39,356 bases of DNA from a virus (Duplodnaviria; Heunggongvirae; Uroviricota; Caudoviricetes): IMG/VR virus record IMGVR_UViG_2671180568_000005; one strand, 5' to 3'. Shown piece by piece: positions 1 to 39,356 of the stretch (its first letter is position 1; every line of letters begins with the position of its first letter). The position numbers and the translations under genes are program-made. The notes beneath the pieces are model-generated. The model did no database searches. It was not told where the DNA came from and saw only the letters and a program-made list of their open reading frames with translations.

Positions 1-87
1 TTACAGTTCCATCGGGTGTGCGCTAAGCTCTTTTCGTTCCCCATTGGGACCCCCTTTTGATTTCTTGTTTGACACTTGCAGTTGCCA
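1..87. repeat. 87-bp segment identical to 395-481 (IS200-like tnpA 5' end plus leader), abutting the 10-N gap
   Basis: Direct comparison of the two stretches; the minus-strand translation ends with the same residues in ORFs 1..489 and 395..583. Confidence 0.8.
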
Positions 88-97
88 NNNNNNNNNN
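88..97. other. Scaffold gap (10 N)
   Basis: Run of n characters. Confidence 0.99.
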
Positions 98-438
98 GTA
101 TCGACGTAGTACCCTCTGCACCAGAACTCCCTGTTCCTGTATTTGAATTTCAAATCACCAAACTGCTCGTAAAGCATCAGACTGCTTTTCCCTTTCAGAT
201 ATCCCATAAAGCCGGATACGCTCATTTTGGGCGGGATCTCCACAAGCATATGGATATGATCTGCACAGCATTCAGCTTCCAGAATCCGTACACTTTTCCA
301 CTCACACAGCTTTCTCAAAATACTGCCTATTGCTCTACGCTTCTCTCTGTAGAACACCTGTCTTCGGTATTTTGGCGCAAAAACTATGTGATATTTACAG
401 TTCCATCGGGTGTGCGCTAAGCTCTTTTCGTTCCCCAT
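98..438 (-). pseudogene. tnpA: IS200/IS605-family transposase TnpA, partial (3' end lost in the gap)
   Basis: Minus-strand translation MGNEKSLAHTRWNCKYHIVFAPKYRRQVFY...HIHMLVEIPPKMSVS...FWCRGYYVD matches the IS200 TnpA HUH transposase; the ORF runs into the N run at 88-97. Confidence 0.85.
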
Positions 439-575
439 TGGGACCCCCTTTTGATTTCTTGTTTGACACTTGCAGTTGCCAGACCGCAAGGTGTTTTAAC
501 AAATCAAAAGGGGTTTTAATAACTGGCTTAAAGCTGAAAGCTTTCCGGAACCCCCAGCCTAGCTGGGGGTTTTCT
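98..575 (-). mobile_element. IS200-like insertion sequence, partial; outer end uncertain
   Basis: tnpA fragment plus leader and a perfect hairpin cccccagcctagctggggg at 551-570 typical of an IS200 end structure; the exact boundary cannot be fixed without a reference copy. Confidence 0.6.
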
Positions 576-2721: not shown

Positions 2722-3144
2722 ATGAAAACAAACACGTCAGATTTCACAATAACTATTTCAAAAAATGACCAAGCATTAATTGATAACCTGAAATACCTTG
2801 CGGAAAAACATAATAACGGACGAATTGCAATTAATTTACGACACATCACAGGAGTAACAATTGTAACCAGTTACTGGCATCTATATCTAATCGCTAAATC
2901 AGTACTTGAAAACAAAGATTCTGTTGTCAATGGAAGAGATATAGATACTCTTCCTGCACAAATCAAACCGATAGCCTATCAATTGCGTAATCGTTTTAAA
3001 AATGAAGGTGGGATTATATTTGACTTTCCCGCAGCTGTAGCCGTGAGCTTCTCTCGGGGGGATATACTTCACTCATTTCGTTTTGCTCTATCAGGTGACG
3101 AGACATTATGGCAGCTAGAAGATGCCGGGAGCAGCCCGGCATAA
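2722..3144 (+). CDS. Hypothetical protein in AT-rich island
   Basis: ORF of 140 aa starting MKTNTSDFTITISKNDQ; local GC is clearly lower than the flanks; no recognisable motif. Confidence 0.5.
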   Translation: MKTNTSDFTITISKNDQALIDNLKYLAEKHNNGRIAINLRHITGVTIVTSYWHLYLIAKSVLENKDSVVNGRDIDTLPAQIKPIAYQLRNRFKNEGGIIFDFPAAVAVSFSRGDILHSFRFALSGDETLWQLEDAGSSPA

Positions 3145-3150
3145 ATCAAA

Positions 3151-3342
3151 TTAAAAATCAACCAGTTGTGTGACAGGTGGGTATTTACGCTGAATTTTGT
3201 CAGTTACTAACGCCAGTAATATATGAATCTCTGTGTTTAATGCGTCTTTATCACCCGTCGTTTTTACCCTGGGAGGGTTAATGTTATCCAGAGCAGCACT
3301 AAGTTCACTCAACAAATTAACAACTTTTTTATCTTCTGACAT
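3151..3342 (-). CDS. Hypothetical small protein (63 aa), convergent with the 2722-3144 gene
   Basis: ORF in the same AT-rich island, 6 bp from the stop of the convergent partner. Confidence 0.4.
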   Translation of the reverse strand: MSEDKKVVNLLSELSAALDNINPPRVKTTGDKDALNTEIHILLALVTDKIQRKYPPVTQLVDF

Positions 3343-5773: not shown

Positions 5774-6095
5774 GAAACCAGAACATGCACACACAAAAAA
5801 ACCGCTTGCCATGCCGCAATCAGTCAGGTTACATTTCCGCTGCACCTCATAAAACGGGTGCCGGGTTTCGCAGCCCGCTGACAAACGTAGCGCACAACCG
5901 CGCCAGCGGTTTTTTTGTGCGTACTGTATCGCCACGTCTTTTTCGCATCAGAATTATGGTGGGGCGTACGGGGCCGACTTCGGTCGGGCCGGGTTCTGCG
6001 TTTGCCGGTACTGCGAACCTCGTACGTCTCGCCACCCACAGTTTCGCAGCTCTGGATGGTGAGTTTTCAAAACTTACACACGTAGAGGCCACACC

Positions 6096-37165: not shown

Positions 37166-37426
37166 ATGTTCCGTTGTCCGCTTTGTGGCGCATCTGCCCG
37201 TATCCGCACCAGTCGTCCGGAAAATGATTCAAACACCGTGCGGCAAAAGTATTACCAGTGTAACAACCTGGAATGCGGCGTATGCTTCTCAACACTGGAA
37301 GCTTTCCATAAATTCACATCAAAACACGCCTCCGCCGTTCACTCTTCAGAAGGTATCCCGTGGCATGAGCTGCCAGCTTCACACAGGGGAAACAATCAGA
37401 TGAGTTTGCCTTTACCTCAGAACTAA
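37166..37426 (+). CDS. ogr: Late-gene transcriptional activator, Ogr/Delta zinc-finger family
   Basis: MFRCPLCGASARIRTSR...YYQCNNLECG with the Cys-X2-Cys...Cys-X4-Cys arrangement of Ogr. Confidence 0.8.
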   Translation: MFRCPLCGASARIRTSRPENDSNTVRQKYYQCNNLECGVCFSTLEAFHKFTSKHASAVHSSEGIPWHELPASHRGNNQMSLPLPQN

Positions 37427-37617
37427 CAGGCAGAATTGCCGGATTAACAAAAAAGCGATAGATTACGCGCGGGTGCCTTTCGGCTGATGGTCGGAGGGAA
37501 TACCCGAAGGCCAGATGTGGAAAGGCCCCGGAAAACATTTCTGTTTAACCGAGGCCCTAACATATCTACCTTAAGCAAGTGATAGGTTAGCGCCTCTCCA
37601 ACAAAGGAGCAAGCGCT

Positions 37618-37758
37618 ATGTCGCAAAAATCGCTTACGGCCATCACGTTCTGCGTGACGGTAATCCTCATCATCTGGATGCTACACGGTTCGCTGTGTGA
37701 AATACGGATGAGCTTCTGGGGAGCGGAGTTTGCGGCGTTCTTACAGTGTAAGCAGTAA
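37618..37758 (+). CDS. hok: Hok/Gef-family type I toxin (46 aa)
   Basis: MSQKSLTAITFCVTVILIIWMLHGSLCEIRMSFWGAEFAAFLQCKQ: transmembrane segment plus the SLCEIR and E-AAF motifs of Hok/Gef. Confidence 0.75.
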   Translation: MSQKSLTAITFCVTVILIIWMLHGSLCEIRMSFWGAEFAAFLQCKQ

Positions 37759-37852
37759 GGAAACCGCGACGGGGAAGGCAACTTCCCCGTCAATCGGTTG
37801 CCAGGGTAAAGGTCGAAAAGGCACCCTATTTCCAGTTGACGTGAACAACAAG

Positions 37853-37885
37853 CCCGCAGCGTAAAAACTGCGGGTTTTCTTTTTG
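37853..37885 (+). terminator. Rho-independent terminator (cccgcag ... ctgcggg followed by a T-run)
   Basis: Read directly downstream of the hok-like gene. Confidence 0.6.
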
Positions 37886-37916
37886 GTTCCCTCACTCATG
37901 AGGACACCAAAAAACA

Positions 37917-37948
37917 AAGCCCACAGCATAGAAGCTGTGGGCTTTTTG
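37917..37948 (+). terminator. Second terminator hairpin (gcccacagc ... gctgtgggc followed by ttttt)
   Basis: Read directly. Confidence 0.6.
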
Positions 37949-38021
37949 CATTCAAAGATGGACGTTATATGGACACTTAAAAATAAAATCCATTTATTTT
38001 CAAATGATTAAACCTCTACTT

Positions 38022-38041
38022 AAAGCGCCCGCAGGCGCTTT
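38022..38041. repeat. Candidate attR core (identical to 585-604), forming the serS-proximal terminator hairpin
   Basis: Perfect 20-bp direct repeat, 22 bp downstream of the serS stop. Confidence 0.6.
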
Positions 38042-38063
38042 TTAGATTCAGAAAAATTGGGTA

Positions 38064-39356
<1,293 letters not shown>

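Follow-up and report, generated by a model that had tools for sequence, protein, structure and literature searches.

Comparison with Described hok/sok Systems

Closure of the mRNA by pairing of the 5′ element tac with the 3′ element fbi has been described as the defining feature of hok mRNAs (PMC9841398). In the hok/mok/sok system of plasmid R1, a transient 5′ hairpin is known, and mok, which starts at nt 116–118, is needed for toxicity (PMC9841398). The translation of mok was reported to be an absolute requirement for hok in R1 (PMC4147584; PMC9841398). In E. coli K-12, the Hok peptides have 49–50 aa, and hokB and hokC possess an annotated mok ATG. Furthermore, hokW-sokW from the Sakai prophage Sp5 is an experimentally supported hok/sok system that is also prophage-borne (PMC8621323). 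In addition, the text of a 2026 preprint by Escalera-Maurer et al. presents cluster 72 as a high-abundance Hok cluster; that study considered coding sequences only and explicitly set aside mok, Sok and the mRNA ends (10.1101/2025.08.07.668861).

The locus analyzed here was located at 37436–37884 of a viral DNA of 39,356 nucleotides (IMG/VR record IMGVR_UViG_2671180568_000005), the whole of which is called the window below. Judged from its sequence, it is very probably a functional hok/sok-type type I toxin–antitoxin cassette of about 400–450 bp, a moron between ogr and attP. It resembled R1 in the peptide with SLCEIR and AAF, the tac/fbi closure, the alternative tac/ucb pairing and the 5′ metastable hairpin (PMC9841398), and also in a predicted antisense RNA, encoded in cis, that would target the leader about 30 nt 5′ of the hok Shine–Dalgarno sequence (SD). 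Compared with R1, the window locus was on a prophage and not on a plasmid, the two peptides shared 30% identity, and mok was absent; the leader had 147 nt, whereas hok of R1 starts at nt 174–176. Unlike hokB and hokC, the locus had no annotated mok ATG, and it differed from the K-12 loci in its shorter peptide (46 aa) and its prophage location. HokW, with 51 aa, belongs to the HokD cluster (35_712) and was 30% identical to the window peptide, and the hokW leader (GGGUGCUUGAGGCU...) is of the hokC/D type. The locus is already known, being annotated in RefSeq and catalogued in PHROGs and in the preprint, and it is of an ordinary kind except for the conserved absence of mok.

Prophage Context

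The features that delimited the prophage were as follows:
585–604, unstranded: attL core, the twin of the attR core, adjoining the integrase gene
38022–38041, unstranded: attR core (= serS terminator), defined by the 20-bp exact repeat and the empty-site boundary at 38022

The window was 100% identical to the chromosome of E. coli PCN033. Judged from these ends and the gene order, this strain carries the cassette within a P2-like (Xuanwuvirus/P88-like) prophage, where it is flanked by ogr and attR. The annotated genes followed the order phage late control D, ogr/Delta, the Hok/Gef gene and then serS on the opposite strand. A 20-bp exact direct repeat, AAAGCGCCCGCAGGCGCTTT, was found at 585–604 and 38022–38041, and the left copy lay beside a tyrosine integrase gene (688–1695, − strand) in which the integrase domains were found. 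Moreover, the core E. coli homology resumed at 38022, and the homology of the serS flank began there in most of the 5425 E. coli genomes. Because of the repeat and this boundary, the cassette was assigned to the prophage, at a distance of about 140 bp from attR, which agreed with the position at the prophage edge given in a preliminary description of the sequence. Packaged P2-like phage genomes, such as P88, carried the same cassette with 95% identity, and the locus in strain UTI89 was 98.5% identical.

Hok Peptide and Family Assignment

37618–37758, + strand: hok CDS for a 46-aa Hok/Gef peptide (evidence from Pfam, RefSeq, phrog_251, the family peptides and dN/dS)

The 46-codon gene encoded the peptide MSQKSLTAITFCVTVILIIWMLHGSLCEIRMSFWGAEFAAFLQCKQ, with a hydrophobic stretch at residues 6–22, SLCEIR at residues 25–30 and EFAAF at residues 37–41. 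The Pfam profile HOK_GEF (PF01848) matched residues 7–44 over profile positions 5–42 of 42, with 30.1 bits (E 3.7e-7) against a gathering cut-off of 22, which assigns the peptide to the family. The Hok/Gef segment and the two motifs that had been read from the letters alone were thus confirmed. The residues conserved in more than 80% of 1,264 Hok peptides are M1, C16, T18, L30, C31, E32 and E41 in the Hok R1 logo numbering (10.1101/2025.08.07.668861), and all seven were found in the window peptide, as M1, C12, T14, L26, C27, E28 and E37. In RefSeq, the gene (141 nt, in E. coli PCN033) is WP_000078920.1, "Hok/Gef family protein". Together with the dN/dS values given below, the sequence comparisons showed that the window gene codes for a membrane peptide of the Hok/Gef family and that purifying selection acts on it.

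The closest named paralogue of the window peptide was HokA of K-12, with 43% identity, and the HokA equivalog model NF007290 was its best NCBIfam match. The score for NF007290 was 35.8 bits, below the cut-off of 89, and the Hok subfamily model NF007279 gave 23.6 bits against a cut-off of 73. Since these cut-offs were missed, the window Hok was not considered a HokA; a separate Hok cluster is the best assignment for it. The family phrog_251 matched the full peptide length (E 2.5e-23). It is named "MokW-like host killing" and listed as a moron in PHROGs, and it is the same family as cluster 72 of Escalera-Maurer et al. The name is misleading, for the protein is a Hok and neither a Mok nor HokW. 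The phage-record label "MokW-like" was likewise rejected as a sign of a Mok or of a HokW orthologue, being a PHROG label for a Hok, while HokW is in another cluster. A search with the PADLOC defence models gave no match.

Within cluster 72, peptide 72_1621 corresponded to the window peptide with V15A, and 72_1589 to the Stx-phage form in L003/L012. Both were cloned and tested for toxicity, and the three constructs that the text of the preprint names as non-toxic include neither of them (10.1101/2025.08.07.668861). The consequences for the annotation of the gene itself are therefore small: it had already been called, its family is catalogued, and it is toxic according to the text of the preprint.

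Distribution and Conservation of the Cassette

Cassettes were gathered from E. coli genomes, IMG/VR, Salmonella and E. albertii with a retrieval pattern that fixed tac and ucb. Relatives with roughly at least 70% identity were present in 1,751 of 5,426 complete E. coli genomes, with up to 9 per genome, and all of them were annotated as Hok/Gef. The family comprised 76 unique mRNAs with 22 distinct peptides, which were all intact (46–48 aa), and the dN/dS values relative to the window ranged from 0.03 to 0.52. The cassettes were found after ogr in P2-like prophages, after lom, and, in lambdoid prophages, between gpJ and the tail fibre. When one genome per species was searched with a strict leader pattern, only 4 loci were found (Salmonella, E. 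albertii and two likely contaminant contigs); this pattern was too strict for defining the taxonomic range. In strain JNEC-KY174, three tandem cassettes were observed at the serS-proximal end of another prophage.

An alignment of 49 sequences was used for the conservation and pairing counts. The full-length fold paired 90.1% of the alignment cells, compared with 39–44% when the partners were slid by 1–3 columns, and 26 pairs had changes on both sides. The slid control was regarded as fairer than a shuffle control, because the relatedness of the sequences inflates the latter. The invariance of tac and ucb was given no weight as independent evidence, because the retrieval pattern had fixed both.

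Promoter and Extent of the hok mRNA

The predicted signals for the sense transcript and the hairpins downstream of hok were as follows:
37436–37464, + strand: hok promoter, with −35 TTGCCG (37436–37441), a 17-nt spacer and −10 TAGATT (37459–37464); +1 is G37471
37471–37884, + strand: hok mRNA, predicted from the Rfam model start, the fold (z = −8.4) and the hokB 3′ layout
37850–37884, + strand: intrinsic terminator T1, from the terminator scan
37916–37948, unstranded: bidirectional hairpin T2, which lies in the attP arm beyond the conserved cassette and has no family homology

The hok −35 element was the exact start of homology among cassettes from unrelated prophage contexts, and the −10 element was kept as TAGATT, TACATT, TAAATT or TAGAAT across contexts. 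The promoter agreed with 8 of 12 sigma-70 consensus positions. A generic sigma-70 scan of 37300–38100 with a threshold of at least 9/12 reported no promoter, and the hok and Sok promoters were therefore assigned by homology. The predicted +1, G37471, was 7 nt downstream of TAGATT and coincided with model position 1 of RF01794.

RF01794 is the hok-mRNA sense model; it matched hokC and hokB of K-12 on the hok strand, in the same orientation as in the window. It matched 37471–37628 (+) end to end with 47.9 bits (E 2.9e-9). The relatives had scores of 42–51 bits, compared with 118 and 110 bits for the leaders of K-12 hokC and hokB. The gathering score of 59 was not reached by the window leader; a scan of the whole window at the gathering threshold did not report the locus, which was found in the E-value mode only. 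The covariance-model search proposed in the preliminary description thus gave a full-length match that nevertheless stayed below the gathering score. Because the RNA part of the cassette scores too low for the default Rfam threshold, about 1,750 complete E. coli genomes lack annotation of Sok and of the mRNA elements.

The leader had 147 nt (37471–37617). A structured leader of about 180 bp had been proposed earlier; its structure was supported by folding and by the family alignment, but its length had to be reduced. The 3′ end of the mRNA is predicted either just past fbi (about 37833), as in the layout of K-12 hokB, or at the strong terminator, whose last position is 37884. The terminator T1, with a hairpin at 37850–37877 and a T-run on the + strand, was kept in P2-like contexts, and other hairpins were present instead in lambdoid contexts. 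The T2 hairpin (37916–37945) was called on the − strand by the terminator scan, and it was regarded as bidirectional because a T-run is also present on the + strand. The two tandem terminators that had been noted after hok were both found.

Folding of the mRNA

The elements of the predicted fold were as follows, all on the + strand:
37471–37485: tac GGGUGCCUUUCGGCU, the partner-switching 5′ end, with fbi, 37494–37505 or ucb as partners
37494–37505 (nt 24–35): segment that tac pairs with in the 5′ metastable hairpin, from the minimum free energy (MFE) fold of the truncated RNA
37517–37529: ucb-like element GUGGAAAGGCCCC, alternative partner of tac
37551–37561: GAGGCCCUAAC, positional analogue of the mok SD (GAGG) of hokB/hokC, from the K-12 comparison
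37585–37596: dcb-like element GGUUAGCGCCUC, forming two exclusive helices, with 37551–37561 or with the hok SD arm
37588–37617: hairpin sequestering the hok SD AAGGAG (37604–37609), −12.3 kcal/mol
37620–37627: start-codon-proximal helix arm, with its partner at 37729–37736 inside the FAAF codons (helix 8, 95.1% paired)
37762–37799: 3′-UTR GC hairpin (core 37768–37777/37782–37791), a 10/10 inverted repeat
37793–37808: 3′ arm of the second long-range helix, with the leader segment 37567–37583 (the Sok-tail target) as partner
37811–37826: fbi GGUCGAAAAGGCACCC, pairing with tac

The mRNA of 414 nt (37471–37884) had a predicted folding energy of −178.8 kcal/mol, with z = −8.4 relative to shuffles. 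In its MFE fold, nt 1–15 were paired with nt 341–356 (37811–37826); the cores GGGTGCCTTT (37471–37480) and AAAGGCACCC (37817–37826) were complementary at 10 of 10 positions, and 5 further pairs extended them. The layout was close to that of K-12 hokB, which has the same GGGUGCC start, its fbi GGCACCC at nt 351 (nt 350 in the window), and the same 3′ succession of GC hairpin, fbi and U-rich tail (CUUUU in hokB). The fbi GGCACCC was conserved, and the tac/fbi helix (helix 1) was 90.6% paired in the 49 relatives; in 8 pairs the 3′ side alone varied, and it stayed compatible with pairing. The tac element itself was nearly invariant in the family, as retrieved with the pattern that fixed it. A second long-range helix (helix 6; nt 97–113/323–338) was also present in the full-length MFE fold, and 7 of its 14 pairs had changed on both sides. 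These models showed that tac/fbi and the second 5′–3′ helix allow the mRNA to close on itself, with the hok ribosome-binding site and start codon then paired.

Besides the long-range closure, the alternative tac partners of the R1 paradigm were found, namely ucb and the 5′ metastable hairpin. The 5′ hairpin (nt 1–35; −17.9 kcal/mol) was the MFE structure after the removal of fbi. The ucb-like segment GAAAGGCCCC (37520–37529) was 90% complementary to 37472–37481, and its pairing with tac was present in the RNAalifold family consensus; this helix was 99.3% paired in the family, in columns that were almost invariant and partly fixed by the search pattern. The segment 37551–37561 had two alternative partners, ucb and 37585–37596. 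The helix with the latter, dcb-like element occupied RNAalifold columns 86–98/122–133, with 87% of the cells paired.

The SD hairpin (helix 7) was paired in 94.1% of the cells across the family, with one-sided wobble changes. For the start-codon-proximal helix (helix 8), TTTGCGGCGTTCTT was invariant at synonymous sites despite dS above 1 between clades. The 3′-UTR GC hairpin (helix 15), upstream of fbi, had compensatory double changes in 5 of its 10 pairs, and by analogy with the R1 model it is likely to be a stop for 3′ exonucleases. This hairpin and the second long-range helix had the strongest support of all helices in the alignment. The fold-back elements that had been anticipated in the leader were thus recovered by the profile search, by folding, in the 49-sequence alignment and in comparison with the K-12 loci.

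Predicted Antisense Sok RNA

37515–37576, − strand: predicted Sok-type antisense RNA (about 60 nt), with a 5′ tail, a GGCCUCGG...CCGGGGCC hairpin and UUUCC at a putative 3′ end
37584–37612, − strand: predicted Sok promoter, with −35 TTGCTC (37612→37607), a 17-nt spacer, −10 TAACCT (37589→37584) and 7 nt to G37576

The promoter on the − strand was convergent with that of hok. Its match to sigma-70 was poor (6/12); its complement on the + strand, AGGTTAGCGCC...CAAG, was invariant in all 49 sequences. The layout was identical to that of sokB (TTGCCG, 17 nt, TAAGAT, 7 nt, G), where the G is the annotated 5′ end of SokB. In addition, the window −10 element (TAACCT at 37589–37584) was homologous to TAACC of sokW, in which a −10 mutation (primer YO-421) abolished the antitoxin activity (PMC8621323). 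The predicted RNA folded with −27 kcal/mol (z = −4.65) into the architecture of the annotated SokC and SokB, with a single-stranded 5′ tail, and its hairpin contained a U-G wobble on the − strand that corresponds to a C-A mismatch on the mRNA strand. Accordingly positioned like the K-12 sokB promoter and the SokB fold, this leader promoter, homologous to those of sokB and sokW, would give an antisense RNA of about 60 nt similar to SokB and SokC. The earlier suggestion of a Sok-type antisense promoter in the leader is therefore upheld, as a prediction, by the positional homology with sokB, sokC and sokW and by the fold.

Absence of mok and Control of hok Translation

37562–37584, + strand: hypervariable would-be mok start and target of the Sok 5′ tail, with no start codon; conserved less than any other part of the leader

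The distance from CCGAGGCC to the annotated mok ATG is 7–8 nt in hokC and hokB, and Sok starts 8–10 nt inside mok there. The window had CCGAGGCC-CTAACAT-ATC, with ATC at the place of the mok ATG. No ATG, GTG or TTG frame overlapped the hok start in the window in any frame, and a canonical start (ATG/GTG/TTG) 4–13 nt past GAGG was absent in 75 of the 76 unique family mRNAs. The missing mok-like frame mentioned in the preliminary description is thus a trait of the family as well as of the window. Given that the window and 75 of the 76 members lack a mok start, hok translation is probably controlled independently of mok. The leader frames from ATG37487, ATG37515, GTG37517 and GTG37579 were considered as substitutes for mok and rejected, as they were not conserved.

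It is about an even chance that Hok cluster 72 is a naturally mok-less hok/sok lineage, in which Sok and 3′ processing gate the hok ribosome-binding site through competing helices. These may be GAGGC/GCCUC on one side and GCGCC-CUCC/GGAG-GCGC on the other, with no translation of a leader peptide. Following the R1 paradigm, the full-length mRNA would be closed, stable and inert. Slow 3′ trimming to the GC hairpin would remove fbi, and the leader would then refold. Sok would bind the exposed target at 37517–37576, and RNase III would cut the duplex. When the supply of Sok ends, by loss of the prophage DNA or by induction, Hok would be translated and the inner-membrane potential would collapse. 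In the absence of mok, the refolding itself would free the hok SD, with GCGCCUC (37590–37596) pairing with GAGGC (37551–37555) instead, and the binding of Sok at 37517–37576 would release GCGCCUC and sequester the SD again. Without constraints, neither the full-length nor the truncated RNA opened the SD hairpin in its MFE fold. A truncated fold constrained to the GAGGC/GCCUC helix was 1.9 kcal/mol above the MFE, and there the SD hairpin was open and the SD almost free. The opening of the SD is thus put forward as an inference from a near-optimal fold, as the MFE keeps the SD closed. If this mok-less scheme is true, the mok coupling that is "absolutely required" in R1 would be dispensable in the family. 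The subfamily keeps every RNA switch element of hok without a mok start, and it therefore offers a natural test of leader-ORF coupling.

Canonical, mok-dependent control, in which a leader ORF from a non-canonical or distant start opens the SD hairpin, was judged unlikely. Its candidate starts are AUC/AUA at 37562–37566 behind GAGG, and AUG37515/GUG37517 behind GAAGG, with stops just 5′ of the SD hairpin at 37572–37574, 37580–37582 or 37588–37590. The GAGG that is the mok SD in hokB and hokC is retained, and AUC 37564 is in frame with hok, like mokC with hokC, with a UAG stop (37588–37590) at the foot of the SD hairpin. However, the leader varies most at the position of the mok start, and the candidate ORFs were conserved in neither frame, length nor end point. 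For the distant start, GAUGUG and the upstream GAAGG were invariant, and an ORF starting before nt 60 reached the hok SD in 21 of the 76 mRNAs; yet these motifs sit in ucb and in the hairpin of nt 18–43, a structural context that is enough to account for their conservation. In about a quarter of the members, ORFs that start at the invariant GAUGUG (nt 45–47) extended to the hok SD, with varied frame and length, which is about the share expected by chance for some 34 codons, and some members had AUG-UGA at nt 45.

The requirement for mok in R1 also bears on the view that the locus is a decaying relic, in which the loss of mok made hok untranslatable and which hitch-hikes at the prophage end. 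Several K-12 hok loci have been inactivated by insertion sequences, and the tandem copies beside serS in another strain could be leftovers of this kind. Such decay is nevertheless highly improbable here: all 76 unique copies had an intact ORF, dN/dS was well below 1, and the SD AAGGAG was conserved with its 8-nt spacing. Moreover, both promoters, tac, fbi and ucb were conserved, the helices showed compensatory changes, and the cassette had spread between unrelated prophage types.

Possible Role in the Prophage

The documented roles of hok/sok are retention by post-segregational killing, help with lysis at induction and exclusion of other phages. The addiction or anti-excision role proposed for the locus would be one of these three, and the sequence features do not discriminate among retention, lysis aid and phage exclusion. 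A role at induction, in which early membrane damage would lead to earlier lysis and more burst release and the lysogen would not be stabilized, is possible but rather doubtful. In the hokW-sokW system of Sp5, mitomycin C removed the sokW RNA, HokW accumulated in a RecA-dependent manner, and the deletion of hokW-sokW halved the phage release (PMC8621323). The presence of the cassette in packaged genomes such as P88 is also in line with this role. However, HokW is in a different Hok cluster, its phage is lambdoid and its regulation is different, and the window showed no link of Sok transcription to a P2-type repressor or to SOS. A module that is hard to lose would fit both its location beside attR and the tandem copies in JNEC-KY174; the latter, which agree with a module that tends to stay behind, are an anecdotal observation.

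Constraint and Variation within the hok Cassette

The codons for the FAAFL motif of hok (TTTGCGGCGTTCTT, 37727-37741) carried no synonymous-site change in the 49 aligned cassette sequences of the family, among which dS exceeded 1. These codons are the pairing partner of the start-codon region of hok. Their synonymous invariance, together with this pairing, therefore indicated a constraint of RNA structure within the hok coding sequence. Within the leader, variation was greatest at 37562-37575 (alignment columns ~95-110), the segment facing the 5' tail of the predicted antisense RNA Sok, and up to nine family cassettes were present in one genome. The variable segment and the number of cassettes per genome suggest that the pairing specificity of Sok and hok has diversified.

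Related Cassettes in Other Records

Three family hok cassettes were found in tandem in strain JNEC-KY174 (NZ_AP045170.1, 10943-12281 of record L139), flanked by serS and the end of a prophage other than that of the window. Such tandem groups have been described as hok 'islets' (Escalera-Maurer et al., bioRxiv 10.1101/2025.08.07.668861). The three cassettes may be the leftovers of repeated integrations at one att site.

The exact E. coli-type hok leader was also present in an 857-nt contig of Xanthomonas pisi and in a 226-kb contig of Vagococcus sp., the latter being 92% identical to the window. Both are probably contaminated or mislabelled assemblies and not genuine hosts. In Stx-type phages (Lyz12581Vzw, 2867-3268 of record L003), the hypothetical CDS annotated 3' of hok begins at the ATG within the fbi element (GATATGGCACCC). 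In these phages, a candidate start codon is overlapped by fbi.

Hairpin and att Core

The attP arm contains the following element:

37916-37948, both strands, hairpin with a perfect 12-bp stem and a T-run on each side

The hairpin lies outside the conserved hok cassette. In the circular phage, it falls downstream of int on the minus strand; because of this position it could act on int, in termination or in retro-regulation in the manner of lambda sib. The att core of the P2-like prophage (AAAGCGCCCGCAGGCGCTTT, 585-604 and 38022-38041) is the intrinsic terminator hairpin of serS, and the serS terminator is therefore restored at attR upon integration.

Other Elements of the Window

Three further elements were recorded:

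1-489, minus strand, IS200-type Y1 transposase ORF, directly outside attL
448-571, STnc490 RNA of the IS200-type element (146 bits), directly outside attL
5842-6039, plus strand, adjacent isrK and C4 antisense RNA (Rfam, gathering-level, 69.6 and 80.4 bits, respectively)

The isrK/C4 pair, located in the early region of the P2-like prophage, is a c4-like immunity RNA of the P1/P7 type. A run of 10 N was observed at ~88-97.
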